A stretch of DNA of 64,000 bases from Alphaproteobacteria bacterium. GTDB taxonomy: Bacteria > Pseudomonadota > Alphaproteobacteria > M2410. The position numbers and the translations under genes were made by a program. Shown in pieces: positions 42,409-63,803 of the stretch. Numbering within the stretch: the stretch's first letter is position 1; the number at the start of each line of letters is the position of its first letter. The stretch spans positions 3,349,889 to 3,413,888 of the forward strand of contig OZ252216.1 in the NCBI GenBank assembly GCA_965248915.1, in the 5' to 3' direction. The notes beneath the pieces were generated by a model. It saw only the letters and a program-made list of their open reading frames with translations, searched no databases and had not been told where the DNA came from.

Positions 42409-42441
42409 GCGAGCATAGCTATGTGTGAATTCATCGATGCT

Positions 42442-46477: not shown

Positions 46478-46522
46478 ACTATGGAAGAAGATCGTGTATC
46501 GCAATTTAATAGGAGATTGAAC

Positions 46523-47674: not shown

Positions 47675-47675
47675 A

Positions 47676-48482
47676 ATGTCCCATTTGGTTTACGAAAAAA
47701 GGAACGGAATAGCCTATCTCACAATGAATCGTCCTGATCGTAGTAATTCTTTGAGTCCGCAAATGATAGTTGAAATGGCTAAAGCTTGGAGTGACTTCAG
47801 GGACGATGAAGATGCGCGAGTCGCCGTACTGACCGGCGCCGGTGACAGAGCGTTTTGTTCTGGCGCAGATCTGGGTTTGCTAATTCCATTGATGTCCCGT
47901 GCTCGCCAGCCGGAAGATGAGTACGACGAAGCATTCTTAAAAGACAGATCATTGATACAGACCGCATTGTTGCGTGACTTCAAGCTCTACAAGCCGGTCG
48001 TTGCAGCGATTAACGGGTTTGCGCTTGCTGGCGGTATGGAGATCATCCAAGCGACAGACATAAGACTTGCAGCACCAGGAAGTGAGTTCGGCCTGTCCGA
48101 GGTGATGCGGGGGATTGTTCCTGCGGGGGGGTCGCTCGTTCGGTTGGCCAGGCAAATTCCATACTGCAAGGCTATGGAGGTACTATTGATTGGCGATCGA
48201 ATGAATGCCGCCGAAGCATTGCGTATTGGACTGATCAATGAAGTTGTCTCAGATGGCACATTGATGGACAGAGCGGAGGAAATAGGACAGCGGATAGCAG
48301 ACAATGGGCCATTGGCGGTTGCGGCATGCAAGGAAGCCGTCCTTCGCACCAGCGGAATGCCCTTAAAGGAGGCATTTGCTATTGAGAGTGAGATTGGTGC
48401 CATGATCTTGCGTTCCAAAGATGCCGTTGAGGGCCCTCGGGCATTTATGGAAAAGCGAAAACCCGATTTTACTGGGACGTGA
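47676..48482 (+). CDS. enoyl-CoA hydratase/isomerase (crotonase) family
   Basis: IAYLTMNRPDRSNSL and AVLTGAGDRAFCSGADL. 1-bp gap after the NMO gene. Confidence 0.9.
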   Translation: MSHLVYEKRNGIAYLTMNRPDRSNSLSPQMIVEMAKAWSDFRDDEDARVAVLTGAGDRAFCSGADLGLLIPLMSRARQPEDEYDEAFLKDRSLIQTALLRDFKLYKPVVAAINGFALAGGMEIIQATDIRLAAPGSEFGLSEVMRGIVPAGGSLVRLARQIPYCKAMEVLLIGDRMNAAEALRIGLINEVVSDGTLMDRAEEIGQRIADNGPLAVAACKEAVLRTSGMPLKEAFAIESEIGAMILRSKDAVEGPRAFMEKRKPDFTGT

Positions 48483-49346: not shown

Positions 49347-50006
49347 TTAGGGATCGTCGTGAAGAGTCCCAAAGAGCTTGTCGCAAATTGGATAGGTGAT
49401 GTTGAAATTGTACTTCGCCATTAAGGTCTTGTTGTGGTGCGTCGTGTGGTGTTGTCTTAGCGCACTCATGAACGGCAATTTCGATGGCCAGGCGGATTCT
49501 TCGATATGATAACAAAAGTGCAAGATCTCATAGTTGAGAAAGTAGAGCGCCGATGTGAAAACGAACAAGAATGCCACATTGGGTGAGAACAAGAAGTAAA
49601 GCAGTGCACCAACGGGTGTCGCGAAACAACCAAAAAAGAAGAACAACATGACCGGTGGAAAAAGGACGGCCTTATAGTCTTTTGAAGAGTCGAATGTTGT
49701 CGCTTCTTCGGTAAAGAAAGAGTGATGTTCAATCGCATGCCGATGATAGAGGAGGCCGAAGAACTTTGTTCGCTTGTGCATCGGCCCTTTGTGCCCCAAA
49801 TACTCAACCAGATTGGCATAGGCGAAAGTTACAGGAAGTGTCGTCCATTCCAAGGCGCTAATGTCTTTGAGCATAATGATCGAAAACACGATCACCGCGA
49901 GCGTGACCGAAACCGTTGTCGCCAAATGTAGCGGGCCGGAGTAACTCATGGAAATATTGTTTTCACGAAAAGCTCTGCGAGACTTCTCAACTGTTTGCTC
50001 TGACAT
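49347..50006 (-). CDS. fatty-acid hydroxylase / sterol desaturase-family membrane di-iron protein
   Basis: Histidine boxes HKGPMH, HRHAIEHH and HHTTHH, with four hydrophobic segments. Confidence 0.7.
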   Translation of the reverse strand: MSEQTVEKSRRAFRENNISMSYSGPLHLATTVSVTLAVIVFSIIMLKDISALEWTTLPVTFAYANLVEYLGHKGPMHKRTKFFGLLYHRHAIEHHSFFTEEATTFDSSKDYKAVLFPPVMLFFFFGCFATPVGALLYFLFSPNVAFLFVFTSALYFLNYEILHFCYHIEESAWPSKLPFMSALRQHHTTHHNKTLMAKYNFNITYPICDKLFGTLHDDP

Positions 50007-50234
50007 GGGGCCTTGTTTCTTGTTGTCTGCTAATCACAAAGATTGGGTACTGGATCCAGTATAGCCTCGGCGAGTATGACAATTTTCATATCGAGTCAAG
50101 TAATACATGAAAACTGAGTAAGACTTGACAAATTGATTTGACGGGCTCAAGTTCTAATCATGAACAGGTGGTGATGCCACCCTTGCCGTATCCTTTGGCC
50201 TGTAGTGCCTTTGCCCCTTGGGATGGAGCCCGAC

Positions 50235-51377
50235 ATGTTACGACCACCGCTTGAAGAACATGAAATCTTCCGCAATTCGGTGACCGAGTTTGTTGAGCGT
50301 GAGGTGAAGCCGAATGCACTTGAATGGGACCGGGCCGGCGAAGTTCCACGTGAGCTGTTCGAGAAGCTTGCCAGTCTCGGGTTTCTCGGCGTTCGTCTGT
50401 CCGAAGATGTCGGCGGCGCCGGTCTCGACTTTTGGTACACGACCATCCTGTTGCAAGAGCTAATGCGTTGCGGTTTGGTTGGCGTTCCAGTGGCCGTAAT
50501 GGCCCATGCCGAGTTCGCCACTAAAGTCATTGATCGCGAAGGATCTGAGGAACTGCGTAAGCGATTTGTCGCTGCCGCGGTGCGAGGAGAGAAAGTCGGA
50601 TCTCTGGGTGTCACCGAACCGGGCGCTGGCAGTGATGTCGCCGCCATACGCACCAAGGCTGTGCGCGACGGCGACGAATATGTGATCAATGGCGCCAAGG
50701 TCTTCATCACCAATGGGACGATCTCTGATTTCGTCACGACGGCGGTTCGCACAGGTGGTGAAGGATACAAGGGCGTCTCGCTTGTCGTTGTACCAACGGA
50801 CACGCAAGGGCTTAGCCGGCGCCGGTTACAGAAAACTGCGACCCATGCCTCAGATACCGCAGAAATCATATTCGACAATGTGCGCGTGCCGGTGGGTAAT
50901 CTGGTCGGCGAGGAGGGAAAAGGCTTCCGTTACATTATGCAAGGTTTCGAGGGTGAGCGCTTAGTGCTTTCCGTCATCGCTTGCAGCCAAATGCGGCTGA
51001 TGTTCGAAGAGGCGCGTGGATGGGGCCATGACCGTAAGGCTTTCGGTCAGTCATTATTGGGTTTCCAGGTTTGGCAGCACCGCTTGGCCGATGTCATAAC
51101 CGAAATCGCAGCCGCAGAAGCGTTGACCCAGCGTGCCATCGAACTCTATGTCGATGGCCAACCGGCCAATGCAGAAATCTCCATGGCCAAGCTTTTCGCG
51201 ACCGAGAAGGCCCGTCATGTGGCGCACGAGTGCGCTCAGATTTTCGGCGGTATGGCACTCATGGAGGAGACGTCAATGGCGCGGCTCTACCGCGATTGCA
51301 TGGGCTTCACCATCGGTGCCGGCACCAGTGAAACGATGAGAAACATCATCGCTAAAACGAATGACTTGATGGTCTGA
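50235..51377 (+). CDS. acyl-CoA dehydrogenase
   Basis: Start MLRPPLEEHEIF preceded by GGAG. Motifs GVTEPGAGSD, FITNGT and C-terminal IGAGTSETMRNIIAK. Confidence 0.9.
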   Translation: MLRPPLEEHEIFRNSVTEFVEREVKPNALEWDRAGEVPRELFEKLASLGFLGVRLSEDVGGAGLDFWYTTILLQELMRCGLVGVPVAVMAHAEFATKVIDREGSEELRKRFVAAAVRGEKVGSLGVTEPGAGSDVAAIRTKAVRDGDEYVINGAKVFITNGTISDFVTTAVRTGGEGYKGVSLVVVPTDTQGLSRRRLQKTATHASDTAEIIFDNVRVPVGNLVGEEGKGFRYIMQGFEGERLVLSVIACSQMRLMFEEARGWGHDRKAFGQSLLGFQVWQHRLADVITEIAAAEALTQRAIELYVDGQPANAEISMAKLFATEKARHVAHECAQIFGGMALMEETSMARLYRDCMGFTIGAGTSETMRNIIAKTNDLMV

Positions 51378-51387
51378 GGGGCGATAA

Positions 51388-52464
51388 ATGGGGCCAAAGA
51401 GAGAAATGCTTGCACATGTCAGCGGTGTCGCCACCGTCGGACCGGTGGTGCACGATCCCCGGTCGATACCTGAGGTCGTCCTTGAAGCGGTTGAAGCTGC
51501 GCTCGCTGATGCCAATCTCACATATGACGACATCGATGCTGTTGTAACGGCGTCGGTGGACCTATTCGATGGACTTACTGCTTCGAACATTGCCGTTACC
51601 GAGGTTGTCGGTGCGGTGATGAAACCTGAAACTCGCATTGCCGCAGATGGACTCTGTGCATTCATACATGGCGTCGCGCAGGTCTGCGCCGGTGCATACA
51701 AGACTGTACTCGTAGTCGCTCACTCAAAGCCATCTCTTTCGAATTTTGATGACATTACCCTTTGGGCCATGGAGCCGGTCTTCTCCCAATCACTGGGTTT
51801 GGATTTCAAATCCGCTGCTGGACTGCAGGCGGCGAACATTGCTGCCCAAGACAAGGATGCTGTGCACCGGTGGGCTGAACTAGTATCTGCGCGCCGTGCC
51901 GCAGCCAGCGGCGGCATTGCTGGTACAGTTTCGGTTCAGGAGGTTCTCGACTCCGAAATTATCGCCTCCCCTCTACGAAAAGAAATGGTAGCGCCTTTTG
52001 GAGACGGAGCTTGTGCGGTTGTCTTGAGCAAAAGCGACCTCTCTCATTCTAATGAGGTGGGAGTTGTTGTCTCAGGTGTAGGTCATGACCTGGCCCCGCA
52101 CGCTCTCGGCGATCGTAATCTGACGAGGCTCGATGGGTTGACGCGTGCATGTAACCGAGCCTATGGCATCGCCGGTATCGAAAAGCCATCAGAGTGTTTT
52201 GATCTCGCGGAACCGTCCGCAATCTATCCGCATGAAGAGGAGTTGTTTGCATCTGCTGCCGGGTTCGGCCCTGCGGTTTCTCTCTCACCGGGGGGAGGTC
52301 TATTCGCAGGCCACGTTCCCGTTGCAGCCGGTCTTACACGTTTGGTCGATTGCGTTCGGTTCATTCGCAGCAATAGCGATTGCCACCGCGCCATGGCTCA
52401 TGGCGCTTGGGGGCCTGCTGGGCAAGGTCAGGCGGTCACTGTACTCGAAAGGATGATCCCATGA
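51388..52464 (+). CDS. thiolase-fold protein A (no canonical nucleophile by eye)
   Basis: Thiolase-like blocks DIDAVVTASVD, CAVVLSK and SPGGGLFAGHVPVAAG. The C-A-S-G position reads A-A-D-G. SD GAGGGG lies upstream. Confidence 0.65.
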   Translation: MGPKREMLAHVSGVATVGPVVHDPRSIPEVVLEAVEAALADANLTYDDIDAVVTASVDLFDGLTASNIAVTEVVGAVMKPETRIAADGLCAFIHGVAQVCAGAYKTVLVVAHSKPSLSNFDDITLWAMEPVFSQSLGLDFKSAAGLQAANIAAQDKDAVHRWAELVSARRAAASGGIAGTVSVQEVLDSEIIASPLRKEMVAPFGDGACAVVLSKSDLSHSNEVGVVVSGVGHDLAPHALGDRNLTRLDGLTRACNRAYGIAGIEKPSECFDLAEPSAIYPHEEELFASAAGFGPAVSLSPGGGLFAGHVPVAAGLTRLVDCVRFIRSNSDCHRAMAHGAWGPAGQGQAVTVLERMIP

Positions 52465-53615
52465 AGCGCGTCGGTATCATCGGCACCGGTCAAACCAAAC
52501 ATACGCGCCTGCGCGACGATGTGAATCAGTCCGAACTTGTGCGTGAAGCTGCAGCACGGGCTCTCAGCGATGCTGGTATAGATTCTCACGAAATTGATGC
52601 CGTCGTAATATCAAACATGGAGCTTTTTGAAGGCCGCGCGTTTCCCGAGTTGTGGGTCGGGGAGGGTGCCTTTGCATTGGGCAAGCCATGCATGAAAGTA
52701 GCGACAGGCGGAACGTCCGGCACAAGTTCCTGCATTGCAGGTTACCATCAAGTGGCTTCCGGCCTATTTGACATTGTTCTCGTCGTTGGATTCGAGAAAC
52801 ACTCCGAAGGCCACACTCAAGCTGGTATGGCCCTCGTCGATCCATTTTGGGATCGAGCCGTTGCCTCCGGCGCCCTTGGAAATTTCGCACTTTCAATATC
52901 GCAATACATGGCCGAGCGTGGTGTCACAGAAGACCATGCTGCCAAAGTTGCCGTGAAAGCGAGACGCAATGGGGCGCTCAATCCGCACGCCCATTTGCAG
53001 AATGCGGATGTGACGATTGAGGATGTCTTGCAATCGAAGATGTTGGCCTATCCGGTTCGCATGCTTGACATGTGTCCTCAGTCGGATGGTGCATGTGCCA
53101 TTGTTTTGGCGAGTGAAGACCGCGCGGAAGCTCTCTGCGATCGCCCGGCATGGATTGAGGCCGCCGCAACCCGCCATCAGCAACCCTATATCGGCGACAT
53201 AGAGCGTCGTCTGGTGACAATGGAAACCCTGCGAGATGCAGCACGCGAAGTATATGACAAAGCCGGTATCACGGATCCATTGCACGACTTCGACGTAGCG
53301 GAAATCTATGAGCCTACGACCTACGCCGAACTCGCCTGGTATGAGGCCCTTGGTTTTTGTCAGGAAGGTAAGGCGGGAGATCTGATTGATAGTGGCATCA
53401 CCGAAATTGGTGGAACGATGCCGGTCAATCCGTCGGGCGGTGTATTGTGTGCCAATCCGGTTGGGGCCACTGGGGTCGTTCGGATTGCCGAGGCTGCAAA
53501 GCAGATCCTGGGACGAGCAGGAGACTATCAAATCGATGGTGCGACCACTGCGTTGGCCACAGGCTACGGTGTTTATGCTTGGGCTGATGCAATGATCTTG
53601 CGGGGGGCGGCATGA
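52461..53615 (+). CDS. thiolase-fold protein B, SCP-x-like (no canonical nucleophile by eye)
   Basis: MKRVGIIGTGQTKH, VVGFEKHSEG and VNPSGGVLCANPVGATG. The C-A-S-G position reads G-T-S-G, and the GHP position reads ANP. ATGA overlap with protein A. Confidence 0.8.
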   Translation: MKRVGIIGTGQTKHTRLRDDVNQSELVREAAARALSDAGIDSHEIDAVVISNMELFEGRAFPELWVGEGAFALGKPCMKVATGGTSGTSSCIAGYHQVASGLFDIVLVVGFEKHSEGHTQAGMALVDPFWDRAVASGALGNFALSISQYMAERGVTEDHAAKVAVKARRNGALNPHAHLQNADVTIEDVLQSKMLAYPVRMLDMCPQSDGACAIVLASEDRAEALCDRPAWIEAAATRHQQPYIGDIERRLVTMETLRDAAREVYDKAGITDPLHDFDVAEIYEPTTYAELAWYEALGFCQEGKAGDLIDSGITEIGGTMPVNPSGGVLCANPVGATGVVRIAEAAKQILGRAGDYQIDGATTALATGYGVYAWADAMILRGAA

Positions 53616-54064
53616 CCGGCGGCAGGACCATTACCCACGAAATGAACTTGACTTGGGCCTATGCGTCAGGCGCCGCTATGGAACGGTTCAGTGAGGGATT
53701 GAAGGCGCGGCGCATTGAGGCGATAAAGTGTGGCAACTGCAATCGACGATACTTGCCACCTCGCCCCTTCTGCGGTCGTTGCAACGAGCGTATTGCCGAG
53801 TGGGTGCCTGTGGCCGATGAGGGTGTACTTGAGGCCTGGACGGTAATGTATCTACCCATCATCGATGGGCGCACCGGCGAGATGCGCGAACCGCCCTACG
53901 GCATGGGACTTATCCGCCTCGATGGTGCAGATACCACACTTAACCACTACTTGGCAGAAAGCGATCCGCAGACCTTGGCCGTTGGACAACGTGTCCGTGC
54001 CGTTTGGCGCGACGAACTTCACGGTGCCATGGATGATATCTTGCACTTTGAGGTGATGCGATGA
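53612..54064 (+). CDS. DUF35 Zn-ribbon/OB-fold protein A
   Basis: CGNCNRRYLPPRPFCGRCN ribbon plus an OB-like tail. 4-bp overlaps on both sides. Confidence 0.8.
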   Translation: MTGGRTITHEMNLTWAYASGAAMERFSEGLKARRIEAIKCGNCNRRYLPPRPFCGRCNERIAEWVPVADEGVLEAWTVMYLPIIDGRTGEMREPPYGMGLIRLDGADTTLNHYLAESDPQTLAVGQRVRAVWRDELHGAMDDILHFEVMR

Positions 54065-54474
54065 TCCGCGAGGGAAGCATAAAACTCCCCTTTGCTTTCG
54101 CGGTAGGCGAGGCGGCGAGTAAGGTCCTTGAGGCGATAGAGGAGCGGCAGGAGATATTGGGGTCTCACTGTTTCGCCTGCGATGAGGTTTTCGCTCCCGC
54201 ACGTTCTTTTTGTCCCGGATGCGGAACATCCGACCTGACAACACGGCTGGTCGGCCCGGGGGGAACTCTTCGGGCGTGGACAGATGTGCCAGGGCGGGGG
54301 GTCTTCGGTCTCATTTTGCTCGATGGTGCAAGTCGCCCTTGGGTTCACAACCTGATTGGAGACCGTAACCAATTTGGCGTCGGTGTGCGGGTTGAAGCAC
54401 GCTTCAGCCCAATTCAGGGAGATCCGAGTAAAGCGGCACTTGTCGGGTTCGAGCATATGGAGGCCGCACAATGA
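54061..54474 (+). CDS. DUF35 Zn-ribbon/OB-fold protein B
   Basis: CFACDEVFAPARSFCPGCG ribbon plus an OB-like tail. 4-bp overlaps on both sides. Confidence 0.75.
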   Translation: MIREGSIKLPFAFAVGEAASKVLEAIEERQEILGSHCFACDEVFAPARSFCPGCGTSDLTTRLVGPGGTLRAWTDVPGRGVFGLILLDGASRPWVHNLIGDRNQFGVGVRVEARFSPIQGDPSKAALVGFEHMEAAQ

Positions 54475-55262
54475 CAGTTCGCACCGAACGTCAAGACGGA
54501 ACACTGATTGTCACAATTGATCGACCCGAAGCGCGAAATGCCCTCAATGCTGAGGCGCGGCAGAGGTTAAACGAAGCCTGGTTGGCGTTTCGAGACGATG
54601 ACGATTTGCGGGTCGCTATACTTACCGGCGCCGGAGACAAGAGTTTCTGTGCTGGGGCTGATTTGAAGGAAATGGGCGACTACTACAAGTCCATGACGCC
54701 AATCGAACGCCGCGAACGAGGCGAACGAGAGGTGGGACTTGGGGGGCTTACGCGCAATTTCGATGCCCGCAAACCCATCATCGCGGCGATCAACGGTCAC
54801 TGCTTGGCTGGTGGACTGGAGCTGGCCTTAGCATGTGACATTAGGATTGCCGTATCCCACGCGACCTTCGGACTACCTGAGGTTAAGCGTGGCATATTGC
54901 CCGGCGCAGGCGGCACACAGCGATTGCCACGAAGCGTTCCGTTTGGCGTTGCGCTTGAGATGATCCTAACAGGCGCACCGATCTCGATTGATGACGCGCT
55001 CAATTGGGGACTTGTTAGCCATGTCGTTGAGTCGGAGAGGCTGCTCGATGAAGCGCTTCGCATCGCCTCGTTAATTGCCGCTAACGGCCCGCTTGCAGTG
55101 CGCGCCGCGCGTGATGCCGTCTATCAAGGGATTTCTTTGCCACTCGTTGAAGCGCTGCGACTCGAGCAATTCCATGCCGAACCTTTGCGTCAAACGCAAG
55201 ACGCGCAAGAAGGCGTGCGTGCCTTCATCGAAAAACGCGTCCCGAAATTCAAAGGAAGATAG
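54471..55262 (+). CDS. enoyl-CoA hydratase/isomerase (crotonase) family
   Basis: LIVTIDRPEARNALN and AILTGAGDKSFCAGADLKE. Confidence 0.9.
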   Translation: MTVRTERQDGTLIVTIDRPEARNALNAEARQRLNEAWLAFRDDDDLRVAILTGAGDKSFCAGADLKEMGDYYKSMTPIERRERGEREVGLGGLTRNFDARKPIIAAINGHCLAGGLELALACDIRIAVSHATFGLPEVKRGILPGAGGTQRLPRSVPFGVALEMILTGAPISIDDALNWGLVSHVVESERLLDEALRIASLIAANGPLAVRAARDAVYQGISLPLVEALRLEQFHAEPLRQTQDAQEGVRAFIEKRVPKFKGR

Positions 55263-55266
55263 CGAT

Positions 55267-56046
55267 ATGGTCAACCAACACATAAAAACCACCTCAGAGA
55301 ATCGAATTCTTCGCATTACCTTGAACCGACCCGACATTTTGAATGCGCTGAATGCAGAAATGTTGGAAGAAATCCATGCCGCCGTGATAGCCGCCGAAGC
55401 AGATGAATCTGTTCGCGTTCTGTTAGTCGACTCTGCGAGCGATCGATCTTTTTCCGCTGGAATTGATGTTGCCTATGTCAAGGACATGGATGCCTTTGGC
55501 TCGCGCGCCATGGGTCAGCTGCTTCATAAGGTTTTCTTAGGCCTTAGGACTGTGAAGAAGCCTGTCGTTTGTTCGATCGATGGCCTGTGTTTAGGCGCCG
55601 GCCTTGAGCTTGCACTGTCTTGCGATTTCATGATCGCGTCGGATCGTTCACGCTTTGGATTACCTAACATTCATCGCGGTATTCCCGCCATCGTCGAAGC
55701 TGCAATACTTCCTATCGCCATTGGCATCCAGGGCACGCGTGAACTCTGTTATTTGGGTGAGTTTTGGGATGCTGAAAAGGCCGAGCGCCGTGGGCTCGTG
55801 CAAGCGATTCATGCATCCAAAAATCTCGCGCAAGAAGTCGACACGCTTTGTCGGACTCTTGCGGAAAAGAGCCCCTTCGCGCTTGAGACCCAAAAAGAAA
55901 TTATTCACAAATGGATGACGACAGATCTTGAGAGTGCCATCGACTTCTCGATCAATACAGTGGGGTTGAACTGGCTCACCAAGGATCAAAAGGAAGGCAT
56001 GCAATCGTTTGTCGACAAGAGGTCGGCTAAGTTCAAAGGGGAGTGA
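55267..56046 (+). CDS. enoyl-CoA hydratase/isomerase (crotonase) family, divergent
   Basis: Start MVNQHIKTTSENRILRITLNRPDILNALN. The oxyanion region reads SASDRSFSAGIDV. Confidence 0.85.
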   Translation: MVNQHIKTTSENRILRITLNRPDILNALNAEMLEEIHAAVIAAEADESVRVLLVDSASDRSFSAGIDVAYVKDMDAFGSRAMGQLLHKVFLGLRTVKKPVVCSIDGLCLGAGLELALSCDFMIASDRSRFGLPNIHRGIPAIVEAAILPIAIGIQGTRELCYLGEFWDAEKAERRGLVQAIHASKNLAQEVDTLCRTLAEKSPFALETQKEIIHKWMTTDLESAIDFSINTVGLNWLTKDQKEGMQSFVDKRSAKFKGE

Positions 56047-56051
56047 AGTTT

Positions 56052-56927
56052 ATGACAAAGACCATCATCACTTGCGCTCTCACGGGGGCACAACAGGGCA
56101 AGGAAGCCAATCCCGCACTACCCGAACAACCGCAAGAGATTATCGAGGCGGGTATCGGAGCATGGCGGGCTGGTGCTGCAATCCTACACATTCACGCACG
56201 CGACAAACAGGGCAAAGCCTCAAGCGACGTTGATACGTTGCGCACCATTGTCAATGGCTTGAAAGAGAGCGGGTGCGATGCAGTAATCAACCTAAGCACT
56301 GGGGGTGCCATTGCTGGATTGCCGTTAGATGAGCGCATTCGATGTGTCCCAGAATTGAAGCCAGAGATTGGCTCTTTTAGTGTTGGTGGTGGGTCGTTGC
56401 TTGGGCGATACGATACTACTGATGGCGAGTGGCGCGGCGATCGATTTGTTCCGCTGTTTTCGTCCCATAGCGAACTCGAACGCGTGGCGAAGATATTTCA
56501 AGAAAATGATGTTCGCCCCGAACTCGAAGTCTATCACTCCGGCATGTTGAACAATATCGCTGCACTCAAAGATCGTGGCGTTCTTGATCAGCCTCTGCTT
56601 GCCAATATCGTGATGGGCATTCCGGGAGAAACCACGAAGGCGGAAGTAAAGAACCTCCTTTATATGGTTGAGGGCCTGCCACAAGACACACAGTGGCTGG
56701 TTTCCGCAATTGGGGCTCGCAATCATTTTCGTATGTTGGGCGCGGTGGTCTCTATGGGAGGCCATGTCCGTGTCGGGCTTGAAGACAATGTCTACATTTC
56801 GGCAGGCAAGCTTGCCTCATCTAATGCCGAGCTCGTGGAAAAAGCTGTGCGCATACTGCGCGAACTGGGCGCCGATCCTGCCAGTCCTGAAGATACGCGG
56901 GACATATTGAAACTTCCAAGGAGATAG
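56052..56927 (+). CDS. BKACE (beta-keto acid cleavage enzyme, DUF849) family protein
   Basis: MTKTIITCALTGAQQGKEANPALPEQPQEIIEAGIGAWRAGAAILHIHARD matches the family N-terminal TIM-barrel signature. Confidence 0.8.
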   Translation: MTKTIITCALTGAQQGKEANPALPEQPQEIIEAGIGAWRAGAAILHIHARDKQGKASSDVDTLRTIVNGLKESGCDAVINLSTGGAIAGLPLDERIRCVPELKPEIGSFSVGGGSLLGRYDTTDGEWRGDRFVPLFSSHSELERVAKIFQENDVRPELEVYHSGMLNNIAALKDRGVLDQPLLANIVMGIPGETTKAEVKNLLYMVEGLPQDTQWLVSAIGARNHFRMLGAVVSMGGHVRVGLEDNVYISAGKLASSNAELVEKAVRILRELGADPASPEDTRDILKLPRR

Positions 56928-56932
56928 GACAC

Positions 56933-57787
56933 ATGACACGGAAAAAGATCGCCATTGATGCATGGGCAACATATGTCAGCCCTGAAGGGGCGACGCGGTG
57001 GCCGGAAGAGTTCATTCACATCTTCAATAAGTACCGATCACCCAAAATCATGACAGAAGGTCAACCGGTTGAAAATATGATTGCGGAAATGGACGAGGCC
57101 GGGGTCGATAAGATCATCTTGTCCTCGTTTTATTACAAAGGCGATCCGGTCATGACCAATGAGGAAGTCTCAGTTCTGGCCAAAGACTATCCTGACCGAT
57201 TCATTCCGGCCGGAACCGTCAACGTCATGGACAAACCGATGAAGGTTGCGGCAGACGTGGAGTATCTAGTCAAGGAACTTGGCATGTGCTGCATTCGGCT
57301 TGAGCCCTACATGTATGGAGACGGCATGACCGGGCTGGCGCCGAACGACAAGCACTACTGGCCGGTTTACATTAAGTGCTCTGAGCTGGGTGTGCCGGTA
57401 GCTCTACAGGTTGGTCATACAGGACCCCTGCTTCCGTCGGAATGTGGGCGGCCCATCTATCTCGACGAAGTGGCGCTTGCCTTCCCTGATCTCACAATCA
57501 TCGGCTGTCATCTCGGTCAACCTTGGCATGAAGAGATGATGACCCTGGCCTGGAAGCATCCCAATGTCTACGTTGAAACTTCTGCGCGGGGTCCACGGCA
57601 ATGGCCACAGAACTTCATCGAGTACGTCAAGTCTTGGGGGCAAGACAAGGTGATTTGGGCCACTGACTACCCGCTACTTACTTTCGACCGTACCTTGAGC
57701 GAGCTTGAGGATTTGGGTGTGTCAGATGAGATCTATCGCAAGGTCACCCGCGACAACCTCATTCGCGCCTTTGGATTGGATCTTTAG
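56933..57787 (+). CDS. amidohydrolase_2 (ACMSD/LigI-like) family metal-dependent hydrolase
   Basis: IAIDAWATY N-terminus, GCHLGQPWHEE and IWATDYPL motifs. Confidence 0.75.
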   Translation: MTRKKIAIDAWATYVSPEGATRWPEEFIHIFNKYRSPKIMTEGQPVENMIAEMDEAGVDKIILSSFYYKGDPVMTNEEVSVLAKDYPDRFIPAGTVNVMDKPMKVAADVEYLVKELGMCCIRLEPYMYGDGMTGLAPNDKHYWPVYIKCSELGVPVALQVGHTGPLLPSECGRPIYLDEVALAFPDLTIIGCHLGQPWHEEMMTLAWKHPNVYVETSARGPRQWPQNFIEYVKSWGQDKVIWATDYPLLTFDRTLSELEDLGVSDEIYRKVTRDNLIRAFGLDL

Positions 57788-57790
57788 GAG

Positions 57791-58225
57791 ATGGGCGTAC
57801 AAGGACTACTTGCCACAATACCTTACGTTGTCTGGCACGAGATTGAGGTGCTTGAGGAGAGCGAGATCGCGTTTGAGATGCGCCTCAGGAATCGTCCGGA
57901 AGTGCATAACTATGTGGGAACCATGCATGCTGGAGCACTCTACACTCTGGCTGAAACGGTGGCGGGAGTGGCGGCCGACAGGTTTGCAGGCGATCAGAAT
58001 GCTTTCATTTTGTTGCGGGACGCAAGTGTTCACTACACCCGCAGGGCGGAAGGGGATATTATTGCTCGATCATTCATCGACCCTTCTAATCTCCGTACTG
58101 CCACAGATGAAATGAAGGAAAATGGTCGGGCTATTATACAGGTGAGTATTTCGGCCCGCGACACCTCCGGCGAAACGGTGTTTGAGGGATCATTTACATA
58201 CGCATTGAGACCGAGGAAACAATGA
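57791..58225 (+). CDS. PaaI/YiiD-like hotdog-fold thioesterase
   Basis: 144 aa. HNYVGTMHAGALYTLAETVAGVAA matches the PaaI-type motif region. Confidence 0.7.
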   Translation: MGVQGLLATIPYVVWHEIEVLEESEIAFEMRLRNRPEVHNYVGTMHAGALYTLAETVAGVAADRFAGDQNAFILLRDASVHYTRRAEGDIIARSFIDPSNLRTATDEMKENGRAIIQVSISARDTSGETVFEGSFTYALRPRKQ

Positions 58226-59001
58226 GTGACAAGCTGTTACAAGAAGTCGATGCGGGCGTTCTGACGTTGACTTTGAACCGTCCAGACAAACTCAACGCAA
58301 TCGACTTTGAACTACTTGACGATTTGGTTGCCGCATTGGAAAGAGCTGGAGACGATTCGGAAGTTGGTGCAATCGTATTGGCCGGAGCAGGAAAAGTCTT
58401 TTGCGCGGGCGCTGACATCGGTCAAATGGTAGATCGATCACCAGGTGAGTGGGAGGCGATTGTCGATCACTATCTCGACCCCATCCGATTGATCTCCACC
58501 ATCGAAAAACCGGTGATTGCGCGTTGCCACGGCAATGTGGTTGGCGGTGGGTTAGGGCTTGCTTTAGCCAGCGACTTTAGGATCGGCGCTGAGGGCTCTC
58601 GATACTGCGCACCCTTTATCAAGCTGGCGCTGGCCGGCTGCGATATGTCGGCTGGGTATTTTCTGCCACGACTTGTTGGACTCGGGTCTGCCACCGATAT
58701 GATGATGACCGGTCGCTTCGTTGAGGCTGAGGAGGCTGTGCAAATCGGTCTGATCTCGCGGTTGGTTCCTGAGGTGGATCTCAATGCGGCTGTGATGGAA
58801 TTGGCGGCGAGCTTCGCTCAGGGCCCGAAGGAAGCGATTGGATTTACCAAGAAGGCAATCCGCCGATCGCTCGATCGCGATATGGCCGGAGAATTCGATT
58901 ACGAGATCTACGCTCAAGTGCAATGCCTGCAAAGCGATGAACACAAGGAAGGTGTGGCGGCCTTTCTGGAACGACGTGCGCCGAATTTCGGCACGCGTTA
59001 G
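58222..59001 (+). CDS. enoyl-CoA hydratase/isomerase (crotonase) family
   Basis: VLTLTLNRPDKLNAI and IVLAGAGKVFCAGADI. 4-bp overlap with the thioesterase gene. Confidence 0.88.
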   Translation: MSDKLLQEVDAGVLTLTLNRPDKLNAIDFELLDDLVAALERAGDDSEVGAIVLAGAGKVFCAGADIGQMVDRSPGEWEAIVDHYLDPIRLISTIEKPVIARCHGNVVGGGLGLALASDFRIGAEGSRYCAPFIKLALAGCDMSAGYFLPRLVGLGSATDMMMTGRFVEAEEAVQIGLISRLVPEVDLNAAVMELAASFAQGPKEAIGFTKKAIRRSLDRDMAGEFDYEIYAQVQCLQSDEHKEGVAAFLERRAPNFGTR

Positions 59002-59010
59002 GAAAACACC

Positions 59011-60153
59011 ATGAATGACCCGACTTTGAGTGAAGAGCAAAACCAGTTTCGCGACAGCGTAAGACTATTCGTCAACAAAGAAATCTTACCTCACGCCACG
59101 AAATGGGATTTGGCTGAAAGGTATCCGCAGGAGCTTTTCAAAATATTTGGCGATCTTGGATGGCTGGGTGTTTCATTTCCAGAAGAGTATGGTGGCTCAG
59201 GCGGCGGTTCGGTTCTTTACGCCATCTTGAACCGTGAACTTGCACGCGGGTCTGCTGCGGTCTGTTTGGGGCTTTACGTGCATACGGCACTGGCAGCGTC
59301 GGCTATTCTGCATTTAGGAACAGAGAACCAAAGGAAACACTATTTGCCGCCCCTAATGAAAGGTGTGAAGGTCGGATGTTGGGCATATGCCGAGCCCGGC
59401 GCCGGCGCTGACGTCTCGAGCGCGCGTCTGCGAGCGACGCGCGACGGCGATGAGTATGTCCTATCTGGAACGAAAATGTATATTACCAATGCGCCGTTTG
59501 CCGATCTCATGATTGTGGTGGCGGCGACAAAGCCTGACGCGGGTCTCAAAGGGTTATCCCTTTTCATGGTTGAGGCGGGGACTGAAGGCGTCACCGTCAA
59601 TGCGCCGCTGAAGAAACTCGGCATGGGCGCGTCCGAGATGGCGGAGATCGTATTTGAGAATGCGCATGTTCCGGAATCAGCGCGGCTTGGGCCGGAAGAA
59701 GGTGGGTTTTTTCAGGCGCTGCGCGTTTTGACACTCGGTCGAATCGCGAGTGCTGGACTTGGTGTCGGTCTTGGGACTGCAGCACTGGAAACGGCGCAAG
59801 GCTACACGAGCGAGCGCGTTCAATTCGGCAAGCCGCTCGCCAAACAACAGTTCGTCCGCTTCACCTTGGCGGAGATGGTGACACGGCTTGAGGCAGCCTG
59901 GCAATTGACCTTACATACGGCACGGCTTGTTGACGCCGGCGAACCTCATGACAAAGAAGCTTCTATGGCCAAGCTCTTTGCGACGGAGGCGTGTACCTGG
60001 ACTTGCGAACGCGCACTGCACCTATGTGGTGCGCAAGGCTACATGAGGGAGAGCCCGGCACAGCGCTTTTACCGAGACTGCAAGGTGCTCGAAATTGGCG
60101 AGGGTACAAGTGAAATTCAGCGCGAGACCATAGCTCGACATTTGGGAGTATAA
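59011..60153 (+). CDS. acyl-CoA dehydrogenase
   Basis: AYAEPGAGADV, YITNAP and C-terminal EIGEGTSEIQRETIARHLG. Confidence 0.92.
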   Translation: MNDPTLSEEQNQFRDSVRLFVNKEILPHATKWDLAERYPQELFKIFGDLGWLGVSFPEEYGGSGGGSVLYAILNRELARGSAAVCLGLYVHTALAASAILHLGTENQRKHYLPPLMKGVKVGCWAYAEPGAGADVSSARLRATRDGDEYVLSGTKMYITNAPFADLMIVVAATKPDAGLKGLSLFMVEAGTEGVTVNAPLKKLGMGASEMAEIVFENAHVPESARLGPEEGGFFQALRVLTLGRIASAGLGVGLGTAALETAQGYTSERVQFGKPLAKQQFVRFTLAEMVTRLEAAWQLTLHTARLVDAGEPHDKEASMAKLFATEACTWTCERALHLCGAQGYMRESPAQRFYRDCKVLEIGEGTSEIQRETIARHLGV

Positions 60154-60156
60154 GTC

Positions 60157-60771
60157 ATGGGCGTAAGTGAACGGCGACAGCGAGAAAGGCAAGCGCGGCG
60201 ATCTTCAGTGATCGATGCGGCGCGCGGTTTACTGCTTGAGAAGGGCTTCAATGGCGCCACGACGAAACAAATCGCCGAAAGATGCGAACTTTCCGAAGCA
60301 ACACTGTTCTTTTACTTCAAAAACAAGGATGAAATCCTGAGTTCAATTCTGTTTGAGAGCATTGATTTTTGGGCGGAAGGGTTCAACAAAGTAGCTGGCG
60401 CCAAACTCCAACCCGATAATAAGCTGGCGCGGCTTTGGAAGTTTTTCAAGAAGGTGAGAGAGGAGCATCCTGAATACTTTTTTGTCTCCGCTTATCTAGC
60501 TCGACCGTATGCCATGGCAGATGTGTCGGACGAAATAAAGAACAAGATCGTGGATAAGTCCGGTGAGAATTTCCAAAGATTGGCTGCGATCTTGGAAGAC
60601 ATTACGGGTCGTAGCGATGGACGCATAATGGCGGATTTCGTGTGGTCAACCTTCTTAGGTCTCATGGTTTTGCGGGATTCCCGCGATAATCTTAACTCGA
60701 CGCCGCACCCGAGCGATCGGGATCTTGTTGCCATTTTCGATATGTTGAAAACGAGTATTTTGGCGCGCTGA
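60157..60771 (+). CDS. TetR-family transcriptional regulator
   Basis: VIDAARGLLLEKGFNGATTKQIAERCELSEATLFFYFKNKDEIL HTH region. Confidence 0.85.
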   Translation: MGVSERRQRERQARRSSVIDAARGLLLEKGFNGATTKQIAERCELSEATLFFYFKNKDEILSSILFESIDFWAEGFNKVAGAKLQPDNKLARLWKFFKKVREEHPEYFFVSAYLARPYAMADVSDEIKNKIVDKSGENFQRLAAILEDITGRSDGRIMADFVWSTFLGLMVLRDSRDNLNSTPHPSDRDLVAIFDMLKTSILAR

Positions 60772-60785
60772 ACTGGAGATATGAG

Positions 60786-61832
60786 ATGAGTGAAATGATG
60801 GCAGCCCGACTTATTGCACCCGGCGAACCGCTCCGAGTTGAGTCTGTTCCCATTCCGGAACCGGTCAGCGGCGAAGTGTTGGTCAAGGTCAGCGCCTGCG
60901 GTCTCTGTGGCACAGATATTCACTTGGCCATTGATGGGGACATTCCCGTTGAGCGCACTCCAATCACTCTTGGTCATGAATCGGCGGGTACCATCACGTC
61001 TTTGGGCGAAGATGTCGATGACTTTGCAATAGGAGACCGCGTTGCGCTTTTCCCATCGGCCAATTGTGGCGTTTGCGACTATTGCCAGGCGGGAAGACAG
61101 TCTCTTTGCGACCGGTCACGGGTCTATGGTATGGCTCGCGATGGCGGTCTTGCACAATACGTAACTGCGCCAGCACATTCATTGATCCGGATCCCAGATT
61201 CAGTTTCCTTCGAGATTGCAGCGATCATCACAGACGGCGTTTCGACGCCGTTTCATGCACTGAGGGACCGGGGAAATTTGCGGCCAGACGAAAGTGTTGC
61301 GGTTGTCGGATGTGGTGGCCTTGGCACCCATGCAATCATGTTGGCTAGACTACTAGGCGCGGGTAGAATCGTCGCTATTGATGTGCAGCAACCTGCACTT
61401 GAGCGAGCCTTGGCGCTTGGAGCGGATCTTGCCATCAACCCAATGGAACAGGATCCAGCAAAAACCATCCGTAGCGAGCTTGGAATTCGGGGTGTCGATC
61501 TAGCACTTGAATTTGTCGGTGCGGCGAGAACTGCTGAGACGGCCATGAGTGTTTTGGGTAAGTCCGGGCGTGCCGTTTTGGTTGGTGTTGGAATGGAGCG
61601 GCCATCCTTGCCGCCGCTCTTGCGATTTGTCGGCATGGAACAAACGATTCTCGGTTCGTTTGGTATGAACAAACAGGACATTGAAGACTTGCTCGCTCTT
61701 GTTGATGAAGGAAGACTCGATCTGTCGCAATCGGTCTCTGCCAAATTTCCATTGAACAATGTCAATGATGCTCTGGCGACACTCGTGCGCAAAGAAGTTG
61801 GTGTTGTCCGGGTGGTTGTGGAGCCCAATTAA
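60786..61832 (+). CDS. zinc-dependent alcohol dehydrogenase (MDR family)
   Basis: CGLCGTDIH, GHESAGTITSLGEDV, a structural-Zn cluster CGVCDYCQAGRQSLC and GCGGLG. Confidence 0.88.
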   Translation: MSEMMAARLIAPGEPLRVESVPIPEPVSGEVLVKVSACGLCGTDIHLAIDGDIPVERTPITLGHESAGTITSLGEDVDDFAIGDRVALFPSANCGVCDYCQAGRQSLCDRSRVYGMARDGGLAQYVTAPAHSLIRIPDSVSFEIAAIITDGVSTPFHALRDRGNLRPDESVAVVGCGGLGTHAIMLARLLGAGRIVAIDVQQPALERALALGADLAINPMEQDPAKTIRSELGIRGVDLALEFVGAARTAETAMSVLGKSGRAVLVGVGMERPSLPPLLRFVGMEQTILGSFGMNKQDIEDLLALVDEGRLDLSQSVSAKFPLNNVNDALATLVRKEVGVVRVVVEPN

Positions 61833-62217: not shown

Positions 62218-62516
62218 TGAGATAATTGGACTGCAAACAGCCGTCTACTCACTCTGACTTTTGAAGACAAGAATAGGCTGGTACTTGCGCGCTTTGTCAA
62301 ATTTACCGGCAGCGTCTATGAGACTTGTTCACACGATGGGTGGCGAAGAGAAGACGGGAGAAAAGGTAAAACAGCGGCCAATGCATCTTTGTTGTAGAGT
62401 GGCTATTCGTGCGATTGTCATTGCAAAACTGGGCATTGTATCACTCAGGCATCGAAGACCATTCGATTTTCTCGGCATCTACTTTTTGCTAAGCTCACAA
62501 CTTCAATTCTCTCCAG

Positions 62517-62681
62517 TCACTCATGTTTCAGGGCGTGTACAGGATTTGCTGTTGCGGCGCGCACGGCATGTATCGCAACTGTGCCATTTGCAATCAACAA
62601 CGCAAATACTGCACCACCGAGGAATGGCCACAGAGTCAGATCAATTCGATAGGCAAACCCCGAAAGCCATGTCTTTCCCCC
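62517..62681 (-). pseudogene. C-terminal remnant (about 50 aa) of an FtsX/MacB-type ABC permease
   Basis: Reverse frame reads KTWLSGFAYRIDLTLWPFLGGAVFALLIANGTVAIHAVRAATANPVHALKHE*. This matches the last TM helix and the conserved ...A..NPV.AL+.E terminus of FtsX-like permeases. No upstream part is present. Confidence 0.5.
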
Positions 62682-62727
62682 TTATAACTGATCCACGAGA
62701 TTCGTGATATTCTAGTTATGTGGAGGT

Positions 62728-63021
62728 ATGGGAATGGCGAGGAAACGGTTTTCAGAAGAAGCTATATTGGGTCTGCTGCGGCAGATTGAGTTGAGTTTGA
62801 CCTCTGGTGGTGACGTGAAGTCGGCCTGTCGATCCGTTGGGGTAAGCGAAGCGACATACTACAATTGGCGGCGCCGGTTTGGTTGTATGAGCAAGTCCCA
62901 GCTTCAGGAATTGAAGTCTCTGGAGAAAGAGAATGTCCGGCTTAAGAAGATTGTTGCTGACCTTGAGTTGGACAAGTTGATCCTGAGGGAAAGTCTTGAT
63001 TACCTAAAGCCGAAGGTCTGA
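62728..63021 (+). CDS. IS3-family transposase OrfA (HTH plus leucine zipper)
   Basis: ARKRFSEEAILGLL...SVGVSEATYYNWRRRFG...LKSLEKENVRLKKIVADLELDKLILRE matches the IS3 OrfA pattern. Confidence 0.85.
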   Translation: MGMARKRFSEEAILGLLRQIELSLTSGGDVKSACRSVGVSEATYYNWRRRFGCMSKSQLQELKSLEKENVRLKKIVADLELDKLILRESLDYLKPKV

Positions 63022-63053
63022 CGATTGCCGATCTGCGTCAGGCTGTAATCCAG

Positions 63054-63803
63054 GTGCGTCAGAAGTTCGGATCATCCGAGCGGCGGACGTGCAGAACGAT
63101 CGGCGTGGCACGGTCCACACAGCGTTATGAGGCAACAGCGGAAGATGATGACAGCCTGCGGCTGGCATTGATCCGACTGGCAAAGCAGTACGGTCGTTAT
63201 GGCTACAGGAAGATTGCCGCACTGCTTCGCGTTGAAGGCTGGAAGGTCAATCACAAGAAGGTAGAAAGGCTTTGGAGAGAAGAAGGTCTCCAGATGCCTC
63301 AGCGACACAAGAAACGCAAGCGGCTTTATCACAAGGATAGTTCGATCATCCGTCTCCGCCCGAAGTATCAGAACCATATCTGGAGCATCGACTTCGTCCA
63401 TGACAAAATGACCAATGACAGGTCGTTCAAGATGCTCACCGTGCTGGACGAGTACACCCGTGAGGCCCTGTGCGTTGCAGTAAAGCCTCGAATGGGCAAT
63501 GCAGAAGTTCTGGAGGCGCTTTACCCACTCCTCCTAAGGCATGGCAAGCCTGAGTTCATCAGGTCAGACAATGGCCCAGAGTTTGTTGCAGAGAACTTCC
63601 AGACCTGGCTCACCAAGGTCGGGGTCAAGCCAATCCGCATCTATCCCGGCTCTCCCTGGGAGAACGGTTACAACGAACGCTTCAACGGCACACTGCGAAG
63701 GGAAGTCCTCAATGCAGAGTGGTCAGCACCATTAAACAGGCTCAAATCGTCATTCAGACGTGGCTCAAACAGTACAATCACATCCGCCCGCATCAATCCT
63801 TGA
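63054..63803 (+). CDS. IS3-family transposase OrfB (rve/DDE integrase core), 3' end frameshifted
   Basis: YGYRKIAALLR..., WSIDFVH (D), IRSDNGPEF (D) and GYNERFNGTLRRE (E). After ...LNAEW (about 63723) the conserved tail FSTIKQAQIVIQTWLKQYNHIRPHQSLNMRPPVPE continues in another frame to a TAG at 63848-63850, which implies a 1-nt deletion. The frame is open from 63009. Confidence 0.85.
   Translation: MRQKFGSSERRTCRTIGVARSTQRYEATAEDDDSLRLALIRLAKQYGRYGYRKIAALLRVEGWKVNHKKVERLWREEGLQMPQRHKKRKRLYHKDSSIIRLRPKYQNHIWSIDFVHDKMTNDRSFKMLTVLDEYTREALCVAVKPRMGNAEVLEALYPLLLRHGKPEFIRSDNGPEFVAENFQTWLTKVGVKPIRIYPGSPWENGYNERFNGTLRREVLNAEWSAPLNRLKSSFRRGSNSTITSARINP

Follow-up and report, generated by a model that had tools for sequence, protein, structure and literature searches.

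What a run of fourteen tightly packed genes does for its host was the question raised by 64,000 nucleotides from an alphaproteobacterial assembly (GCA_965248915.1, contig OZ252216.1, positions 3,349,889 to 3,413,888), referred to here as the window. The genes lie on the plus strand at 50235–61832 and are numbered g01 to g14 in order of position (Table 1). In the initial annotation they were taken for an operon acting on coenzyme A thioesters and matching no pathway that could be named. The reading favored here, with moderate confidence, is that they form a self-contained catabolic cassette, TetR-regulated and horizontally transferred, which would shorten a beta-branched or bulky acyl-CoA by steps resembling beta-oxidation but without a true thiolase. 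The first interpretation survives in part: the genes behave as a conserved unit and resemble side-chain degradation genes, while its proposals of ring opening and of kinship with steroid ring C/D degradation were not supported.

All 14 open reading frames (ORFs) were recovered at the coordinates originally given for them. Recomputed junctions bore out the description of genes 3–14 bp apart or in 4-bp overlaps. From g01/g02 to g06/g07 the spacing is +10, −4, −4, −4, −4 and +4 bp, and from g08/g09 to g13/g14 it is +5, +3, −4, +9, +3 and +14 bp. The g07/g08 junction is −4 bp with the GTG start at 56043 and +5 bp with the ATG start at 56052, giving a possible sixth 4-bp overlap (56043/56046) besides the five ATGA overlaps named earlier, all of which are correct. 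Pfam agreed with every family name proposed: ACAD (acyl-CoA dehydrogenase) for g01, a weak thiolase-like match for g02, Thiolase_N and Thiolase_C_1 for g03, the DUF35 zinc ribbon and OB domains for g04, and the zinc ribbon only for g05. The remaining genes, g06 to g14, were assigned to ECH, ECH, BKACE (beta-keto acid cleavage enzyme), Amidohydro_2, DUF4442 hotdog, ECH, ACAD, TetR and zinc-dependent alcohol dehydrogenase (Zn-ADH). None of the 14 proteins reached an NCBIfam equivalog cut-off.

The arrangement is far beyond chance, because many unrelated genomes have these genes in the same order. One genome per GTDB species was searched with g02 and then with an alignment of g09, and the 14 proteins were scored against the 119 loci returned; taxon names of metagenome-assembled genomes (MAGs) are the depositors' labels. 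At least 12 of the 14 genes stand in the same order on about 20 distinct MAG contigs, at protein identities of 40–94% and in at least six phyla, as expected for the single conserved unit first proposed. These collinear cassettes were found in Alpha-, Beta- and Gammaproteobacteria, Myxococcota, Acidobacteriota, Actinobacteriota (including Nanopelagicales) and Desulfobacterota. By record name the hosts are Woeseiaceae, Burkholderiales, Rhodobiaceae, Hyphomicrobiales, Polyangiaceae/Myxococcales, Thermoanaerobaculia, other Acidobacteriota, Gaiella, Solirubrobacterales and Desulfarculaceae. A Nanopelagicales MAG has all 14 families with the g11–g12 pair inverted downstream. Rearranged cassettes occur in Acidimicrobiia, Nitrospirae and Anaerolineae, and partial ones, on short contigs, in Rokubacteria and Methylomirabilia. 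In 10 loci (L024, L044–L046, L049–L053 and L088) an extra gene for a 4HBT-type thioesterase of about 140 aa lies between g11 and g12; it is absent from the window.

The genes flanking the cassette vary between loci. In the window its GC content is 0.53–0.565 compared with 0.49–0.50 in both flanks (3–6 percentage points richer), and an IS3-like element (62261–63803, +) lies directly 3' of g14. The ORF for its rve integrase core (63054–63803) has a Pfam match; ORF 62261–62707 has none, and the small ORF 62728–63021 of the element fell outside the scan. The most conserved gene of the cassette is g09. A relative of it is present in 172 GTDB species representatives, the best 80 of the 172 all being MAGs, and 1855 relatives (90%-identity clusters, E ≤ 1e-40) are present among metagenome proteins, every source-named one coming from a MAG. 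Among the matches listed, the closest relatives of g09 belong to marine alphaproteobacterial MAGs (93–94% identity). Plasmids of cultured strains contained no cassette orthologue, their relatives being at most 37% (g09) and 46% (g03) identical, and the g09 relative of Rhodococcus aetherivorans stands in an unrelated gene context.

The control region is conserved as well. At 65–150 bp upstream of g01, 48 of the 60 loci having upstream sequence carry the motif TGAGTAnnACTTGACAA followed by a GAGT...ACTC (GAGTnnnACTC) element; these loci amount to 37 distinct sequences and span Proteobacteria, Actinobacteriota, Acidobacteriota and Desulfobacterota. The perfect copy in the window is the only match with two or fewer mismatches in its 64 kb, with 0.09 expected by chance, and includes TTGACA, a −35-like hexamer. 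The motif is probably where the cassette's own TetR protein, g13, binds, overlapping the −35 box. The conserved motif and the TetR gene inside the cassette argue for one regulated unit. g13 is present in the long cassette described here and in a short variant (below), and its best PDB match scores only 54 bits. In simple sigma-70 and terminator scans the sole internal plus-strand promoter-like site was inside g14, and terminator-like hairpins (17, with 14.1 expected) were no commoner than in shuffled sequence. Spacing, collinearity and the upstream motif together suggest that the 14 genes may be co-transcribed. The motif is located between g01 and a divergent FA_hydroxylase gene. This family adjoins the cassette in nine loci, mainly alphaproteobacterial MAGs, and its recurrence suggests that it may provide an oxygen-dependent entry step to the pathway.

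The chemistry was approached through the thiolase-fold proteins. In HMMER alignments to SCP2-thiolases, BbsB and an archaeal thiolase, g03 has Gly at the position of the nucleophilic Cys, YEP(T/V) for HDCF and (S/A)NP for GHP, and these substitutions are kept in 12 of 12 orthologues aligned. In g02 the Cys loop is deleted and the HDCF and GHP motifs are both absent, as they are in 12 orthologues. Neither protein therefore has the Cys, HDCF and GHP His of a true SCP2/SCPx-type thiolase, and on these residues neither is a thiolase. g02 is probably a non-catalytic or repurposed partner subunit, and g04 is assigned as a partner of the thiolase-fold proteins.

When g03 was compared with plasmids of cultured bacteria, the best match was on plasmid 4 of Tsukamurella tyrosinosolvens. 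The gene order there is nitronate monooxygenase (NMO), crotonase, AMP-ligase, a 309-aa double OB-fold (DUF35) protein and thiolase-like proteins of 359 and 390 aa, with a P450 and a gene annotated "steroid 3-ketoacyl-CoA thiolase" nearby. We take this arrangement to be that of the mycobacterial fadD19-echA19...Rv3521-ltp4-ltp3 region. The Tsukamurella proteins are called Ltp3- and Ltp4-like from their FadD19/EchA19/P450/FadA5-like context and from what we take to be the gene order Rv3521–Rv3523. Over its full length g03 is 45.6% identical to the Ltp3-like protein and has the same Gly/Tyr/SNP signature, and the best match of g02 is the Ltp4-like protein (29%). g04 is 32–34% identical to both halves of the double-DUF35 protein, g05 is 27% identical to its C-terminal half, and g06 is 40% identical to the EchA19-like crotonase. 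The cassette thus has the repurposed active-site signature and the two adjoining DUF35 units of an Ltp3/Ltp4-type pair, but no steroid nucleus genes were found around it, either among the scanned window ORFs or among recurrent neighbors. These homologies (to Ltp4, Ltp3, the double-DUF35 protein and EchA19) uphold the early suggestion of a likeness to steroid side-chain degradation; none to steroid ring C/D genes was found.

SCPx-like proteins with DUF35 partners include proven retro-aldolases (Sal1; Atf1-ChsH4; PMC10398937). From the loss of the thiolase residues and from the homologies, the C–C cleavage by g02–g05 is probably retro-aldol. Two other assignments were rejected. A PhlACB-type acyltransferase needs the catalytic Cys that is absent from g02 and g03, and similarity to PhlC is weak (77 bits); an archaeal thiolase/HMG-CoA synthase/DUF35 complex likewise requires that Cys.

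In g01 the C-terminal catalytic Glu is absent (IGAGTSE) and a Glu is found at the IVD/LCAD-type position (FEGERLV), which would suit a 3-substituted substrate. The best NCBIfam match of g12 is AcrC (346 bits, cut-off 640). Of the three crotonases, g06 alone has both hydratase Glu residues (motifs GGLELA and GLPEV), presumed to correspond to E144 and E164 of rat enoyl-CoA hydratase; its best NCBIfam match is EchA19 (277 bits, cut-off 400). g07, which always accompanies the BKACE gene g08, has the first catalytic Glu only (GAGLELA; GLPNI), and to call it a hydrolase or an isomerase is a guess. g11 has the motifs GGGLGLA and CAPFI, its best PDB matches are 6sl9, 6sla, 6slb and 3hrx at 180 bits, and it is a putative PaaG-like enoyl-CoA isomerase. 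The "ring-opening-capable crotonases" proposed at first give no sign of ring-opening activity and are better described as one hydratase, one PaaG-type isomerase-like protein and one single-Glu protein. g14 has the two zinc motifs, catalytic and structural, and is matched best in the PDB by general primary/secondary alcohol dehydrogenases; it scores below the cut-off of the NCBIfam Had model (164 bits vs. 339). Its substrate would be either a free alcohol, aldehyde or ketone, or it would serve as a 3-hydroxyacyl-CoA dehydrogenase.

A further C–C cleaving enzyme, missed by the initial annotation, is likely encoded by g09. PipW, CouO and HpeF belong to the amidohydrolase superfamily and take over from a thiolase the final step in the deacetylation of aryl-beta-ketopropionyl-CoA (PMC4737184, PMC9618137, PMC12753220). 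BLASTP of g09 against PipW, the sequence of which was taken from the supplement of PMC12753220, gave 29% identity over 221 aa (114 bits, E 9e-35), better than any PDB entry. The best PDB match, 3irs, has no assigned function; the PDB proteins with a known function that it matches, decarboxylases and a hydratase, have E values of about 1e-4. The HTG, FPDLT..H..PW and (S/T)D(F/Y)P motifs are shared with PipW/CouO-type enzymes, and H162, H193 and D245 are invariant. D-A-W replaces the strand-1 HxH in 10 of 10 aligned orthologues. The metal-ligand set of CouO/PipW-type enzymes comprises that HxH, two further His and the strand-8 Asp (presumably D257 in CouO).

The product of g08 retains the HIH and GLED motifs and matches the Pfam BKACE family (PF05853) over its full length, far above the gathering score of 24.8 bits. 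It is predicted to convert a beta-keto acid and acetyl-CoA to an acyl-CoA and acetoacetate. The named BKACE equivalogs all fell below their NCBIfam cut-offs (Kce 251/382, the dioxohexanoate enzyme 213/430 and the 3-oxoadipate enzyme 177/350), and the best PDB match, 3lot, is an uncharacterized protein. The BKACE pathways for carnitine, lysine fermentation and phloroglucinol were rejected, as no equivalog score was reached and the gene context has no carnitine dehydrogenase or phloroglucinol reductase. The precedent for a BKACE beside a thioesterase is VceA/VceB, in which an acetyl-CoA-dependent conversion of a beta-keto acid to an acyl-CoA is followed by a thioesterase step (bioRxiv 10.1101/2022.04.28.489975). 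The initial comparison with aromatic side-chain pathways was well placed in this regard, as g09 resembles CouO/PipW and the BKACE with its thioesterase resembles VceA/VceB. In a NetSyn preprint on BKACE gene contexts there is no mention of thiolase, amidohydrolase or enoyl-CoA. For g10, a role as a CouM/PipX-type MaoC hydratase was considered and rejected, there being no similarity.

The short variant of the cassette keeps g01, g06 and g09–g14 and is without g02–g05 and g07–g08. Its hosts are Hyphomonadaceae, Parvularculaceae, Robiginitomaculum, Marinicaulis, Pseudohongiella, Halieaceae and an abundant TARA Pseudomonadales MAG. The missing genes are replaced by a divergent operon with an AMP-forming CoA ligase (22 loci), a short citrate-synthase-like relative of "citryl-CoA lyase" (21 loci; 156 bits, under the cut-off of 193), one DUF35 gene and a thiolase-fold gene that is Cys-less and YDCF-type (Ltp2-like). 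A true thiolase is absent from long and short variants alike. The long variant has a BKACE and no ligase, whereas the short one has a ligase and no BKACE. They are read as two solutions to the same needs: to break a C–C bond in a hindered 3-hydroxyacyl-CoA and to activate, or reactivate, an acid intermediate. In a third arrangement, found in MAGs of Myxococcota, "Deltaproteobacteria" and Spirochaetaceae, g09–g12 stand together and g01, an aldolase-like gene, g06 and g14 are divergent. In an abundant marine Pseudomonadales MAG (L120–L122), whose g09 homologue (P0030) is indexed in 40 blocks of the assembly collection, a gene of the tannase/feruloyl-esterase family (3107–4708, −) lies beside the short variant, between the Ltp2-like aldolase and an extra pair of ACAD and ECH genes.

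From the observed gene content, active-site signatures, homologies, conservation and upstream motif, we infer the reactions, their order and the substrate as follows. In the first step g01, with its IVD/LCAD-type base, would desaturate a beta-substituted acyl-CoA, and the EchA19-like hydratase g06 would then add water. The resulting 3-hydroxyacyl-CoA, probably tertiary, would be cleaved in retro-aldol fashion by g02–g05 to acetyl- or propionyl-CoA and a carbonyl product. g01, g02–g05 and g06 are contiguous, as in steroid side-chain operons. A second round would employ the dehydrogenase g12 and the isomerase g11, with g14 acting on the carbonyl or alcohol or on a 3-hydroxyacyl-CoA. Two endings are conceivable. 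Either g09 would hydrolyze a 3-oxoacyl-CoA to the free acid and acetyl-CoA, or g07 or g10 would hydrolyze the thioester and g08 would convert the beta-keto acid and acetyl-CoA, with no ATP, to the shortened acyl-CoA and acetoacetate. The aldolase may, like HMG-CoA lyase, release a free beta-keto acid, which would then feed the BKACE directly. A beta-alkyl-branched chain of the isoprenoid or sterol-side-chain kind is favored as substrate, because of the Ltp3/4 and EchA19 homologies and the g01 signature. Aryl- or alicyclic-alkanoates would come second and are kept open because of the CouO and Vce parallels and the tannase-family neighbor in one lineage.

Several points weigh against this scheme. 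The assignment of the g01 and g12 motifs to catalytic positions follows MCAD and IVD as we take them to be, and the PDB matches of g11 (6sl9, 6sla, 6slb and 3hrx) are (Thermus) PaaG isomerases by our assumption. We know of no work that has established the biochemistry of Ltp3 and Ltp4 themselves. As g09 is without the HxH metal ligands of CouO and PipW, its chemistry may differ from theirs. g10 is missing in some cassettes (L002, L016, L019, L080, L081 and others), several of which are complete in other respects. No transporter or ligand points to the substrate, and the fate of the aldolase carbonyl product is unexplained unless that product is a beta-keto acid. Three alternative C–C cleavage systems in one operon would also be unparsimonious for a simple two-round scheme. 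A bolder form of the proposal is a bypass of the beta-branch block that dispenses with both ATP and thiolase: an Ltp3/4-type aldolase would act on the tertiary 3-hydroxyacyl-CoA, the BKACE would re-thioesterify the free beta-keto acid using acetyl-CoA, and the CouO-like hydrolase would finish the chain. We offer it as speculation with a small chance of being right. Were it true, the cassette, spread by horizontal transfer among uncultured bacteria of marine, freshwater, groundwater and sponge habitats, could account for a major part of the turnover of isoprenoid-derived or carboxyl-rich alicyclic organic matter.

One other explanation is that the cassette belongs to sterol catabolism and strips the alkyl branch at C24 from side chains of the phytosterol type, the function proposed for FadD19/EchA19/Ltp3/Ltp4 in actinobacteria. 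In its favor are the homologies of g03, g02, g04/g05 and g06 to Ltp3, Ltp4, the Rv3521-like protein and EchA19. The NMO and ECH genes upstream of the cassette in the window are likewise 43% identical to the NMO and EchA19-like genes of the Tsukamurella region. Genetic work ties the FadD19/EchA19/Ltp region to C24-branched sterols (PMC6273163, PMC10398937): ltp3 and ltp4 are reported to be indispensable for sterol side chains branched at C24 but not for straight ones (Wilbrink 2012, cited in both papers). FadD19 is required solely for C24-branched sterols, and loss of EchA19 slows the use of sitosterol (PMC6273163). Nevertheless, no Rieske oxygenase, ketosteroid dehydrogenase, meta-cleavage, MaoC or P450 gene was found among the Pfam-scanned ORFs of the window or the recurrent neighbors at about 120 loci. 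The hosts include presumed anaerobes and Nanopelagicales, each ACAD carries its own catalytic Glu, the identities are 27–46%, and the BKACE, Amidohydro_2 and isomerase genes would have no role in known sterol pathways. This reading is considered improbable.

Shortening of aryl-alkanoate side chains (dihydro-hydroxycinnamates, phenylpropionate, phenylvalerate or lignin-derived aroylacetates) by a Cou/Pip/Vce-type deacetylation extended by ACADs is similarly improbable. It would account for g09, which is nearest to PipW/CouO, for the pairing of a BKACE with a small thioesterase as in VceA/VceB, and for the tannase/feruloyl-esterase gene beside the short variant in the marine Pseudomonadales MAG. 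That gene, however, is found in one lineage only, and VceA is a BKACE only by our presumption. g09 does not have the HxH of CouO/PipW, no genes for aromatic ring cleavage or O-demethylation are conserved nearby, and the Ltp3/4-like aldolase module and the IVD-type ACAD would be left unexplained.

Opening of an alicyclic ring of the cyclohexanecarboxylate (CHC) or naphthenic-acid type, by analogy with CHC-CoA dehydrogenases and Dch/Had/Oah or BadK/H/I, appears less probable again. The Geobacter/Syntrophus scheme for CHC has a core of two ACADs, two crotonases and a Zn-ADH, a composition that speaks for such a route, and CHC-CoA dehydrogenase models are among the top NCBIfam ACAD matches. The equivalog models are far under their cut-offs, however (CHC 227/575 and 248/650, Had 164/339), and on these scores the benzoyl-CoA/CHC lower pathway was rejected. 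No Dch, Oah or BadI model was among the top 25 crotonase matches, g11 is isomerase-like and g06 resembles a plain hydratase. That generic beta-oxidation paralogues have come to lie together by chance and serve no common function of their own is very hard to credit. In favor of it, all the families are common and the window has other, ACAD-free lipid clusters with ECH, ligase and thiolase-like genes, but it is contradicted by the recurrence of 12–14 of the genes, in one and the same order, on about 20 contigs from several phyla, with varied flanks and a common upstream motif.

Table 1. Coordinates of the cassette genes, the upstream motif and the divergent neighbor in the window
Feature	Position	Strand	Evidence
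g01, acyl-CoA dehydrogenase	50235..51377	+	Pfam ACAD N, M and C domains
g02, degenerate SCPx-thiolase-fold protein, Ltp4-like	51388..52464	+	NCBIfam PRK07937 'lipid-transfer protein', 127 bits
g03, Ltp3-type thiolase-fold protein, putative retro-aldolase	52461..53615	+	Residues and identity to Tsukamurella Ltp3-like protein
g04, DUF35 protein	53612..54064	+	Pfam zf-ChsH2 and OB_ChsH2_C
g05, second DUF35 protein, OB part divergent	54061..54474	+	Pfam zf-ChsH2
g06, canonical enoyl-CoA hydratase, EchA19-like	54471..55262	+	Both catalytic Glu; NCBIfam EchA19
g07, single-Glu crotonase	55267..56046	+	Pfam ECH_1
g08, BKACE, a cleavage enzyme for beta-keto acids	56043..56927	+	Pfam BKACE, 286 bits
g09, Amidohydro_2 enzyme, putative CouO/PipW-like C–C hydrolase	56933..57787	+	BLASTP vs. 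PipW
g10, DUF4442 hotdog protein, putative acyl-CoA thioesterase	57791..58225	+	Pfam DUF4442, 73 bits; weak 4HBT
g11, crotonase without hydratase glutamates, PaaG-like, putative isomerase	58222..59001	+	Motifs and PDB matches
g12, acyl-CoA dehydrogenase	59011..60153	+	Pfam; C-terminal Glu (IGEGTSE)
g13, TetR-family regulator	60157..60771	+	Pfam TetR_N
g14, zinc-dependent medium-chain alcohol dehydrogenase	60786..61832	+	Pfam ADH_N and ADH_zinc_N
Promoter/operator-like motif TGAGTAAGACTTGACAA, upstream of g01	50115..50131	+	Perfect copy
Accessory FA_hydroxylase (membrane di-iron hydroxylase/desaturase family)	49347..50006	−	Pfam

Elsewhere in the window, an NMO-family gene and a crotonase gene (46412–48482, +) lie directly upstream of the cassette; they are not conserved beside it in other genomes. 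A second lipid-type cluster (37705–45007, −) encodes a thiolase-fold protein, a family III CoA-transferase, a crotonase, a TetR regulator, an alpha/beta hydrolase, a TauD-family dioxygenase and an MFS transporter, and is adjoined by an MBL/alkyl-sulfatase-like gene (45004–46326, −). Its thiolase-fold gene (37705–38904, −) is Cys-less and YDCF-type (Ltp2-like), has no adjacent DUF35 gene and falls, with identities of at least 40%, into one group with the aldolases of the short variant. At 15146–35715 there are three TonB-dependent receptors, two further AMP-forming CoA ligases and a fumarylacetoacetase-family gene, and a three-subunit molybdoenzyme of the xanthine-dehydrogenase family at 27185–30830. 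The receptors, ligases, molybdoenzyme and fumarylacetoacetase-family gene suggest a catabolically versatile Gram-negative host.

If the favored reading holds, the cassette would provide a first functional context for Ltp3/Ltp4 with a double DUF35, for HxH-less CouO-like amidohydrolases and for a BKACE with a single-Glu crotonase. It would also represent a compact, portable pathway in at least 172 GTDB species representatives and 1855 metagenome protein clusters, including abundant pelagic and freshwater lineages, in which few genes are known for degrading branched isoprenoid acids and dissolved organic matter of the alicyclic kind. The conserved operator and the TetR gene offer an experimental handle on the inducer and hence on the substrate. 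No characterized collinear pathway was found among the NCBIfam equivalogs, the plasmids of cultured strains or the full-text literature; the literature search, which did not extend to subscription papers, returned no paper combining the key families of the cassette. Within the scope of these searches, which for genomes took in the best 80 of 172 hits, the first impression that the operon fits no pathway that could be named stands.

The known systems closest to it each share a part. The benzylsuccinate operon BbsEFGHCDAB also sets an ACAD, a crotonase, a dehydrogenase and a thiolase-fold protein with DUF35 to work on a bulky acyl-CoA, and BbsB is among the best PDB matches of g03. BbsB, however, is a true thiolase, its catalytic Cys being retained in the alignment. 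The BbsB model of NCBIfam scored 160 (cut-off 750), and the cassette is also without a CoA-transferase. With the BKACE systems (Kce of lysine fermentation, VceA/VceB of Sphingobium SYK-6 and the triacetate and 3-oxoadipate BKACEs) g08 has its metal and catalytic motifs in common. A beta-keto acid could be turned back into a thioester by g08 with no need of ATP, and the small thioesterase g10 is located two genes downstream, after g09. The coupling of g08 to a single-Glu crotonase inside an ACAD/aldolase operon is a context that was not found described.

CouLMNO, PipUVWX, Atu1415-1421 and HpeEF, which deacetylate aryl-propenoates in a beta-oxidative manner, likewise use an Amidohydro_2-type enzyme in place of a thiolase at the 3-oxo stage. 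These systems have a MaoC hydratase, an SDR dehydrogenase and a MarR regulator, whereas the cassette has a crotonase, a Zn-ADH and a TetR regulator. Its g09 is without the HxH, and its ACADs, aldolase module and BKACE have no counterpart there.

Ltp2-ChsH2, Sal1 and Atf1-ChsH4 (operon atf1-chsH4-chsE6-kstR3) similarly combine a thiolase-fold protein that is not a thiolase with a DUF35 partner, and share the pairing with a reductase or alcohol dehydrogenase and a TetR gene in the operon (PMC10398937). They have one aldolase and one DUF35 protein and act on steroid C17 side chains, whereas the cassette has two of each. Their hydratases are MaoC-type, and those of the cassette are crotonase-type.

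The FadD19-EchA19-Rv3521-Ltp4-Ltp3 region resembles the cassette in having a pair of SCPx-thiolase-fold proteins without the Cys, about 360 and 390 aa long, as well as two DUF35 units and a hydratase of the EchA19 kind. The DUF35 units are fused in Tsukamurella and are two genes in the cassette, and the gene order is unlike. The cassette is without the FadD19 ligase and surrounding steroid genes, adds a BKACE, an Amidohydro_2 enzyme, an isomerase, a hotdog protein, two ACADs and a Zn-ADH, and resides in hosts that are mostly non-actinobacterial and uncultured. Each of its families is known, as are aldolytic and hydrolytic clusters resembling beta-oxidation; the cassette draws its interest from how widely it is distributed, from its strict conservation and from its hosts, the listed genome hits and all source-named relatives being from uncultured organisms.

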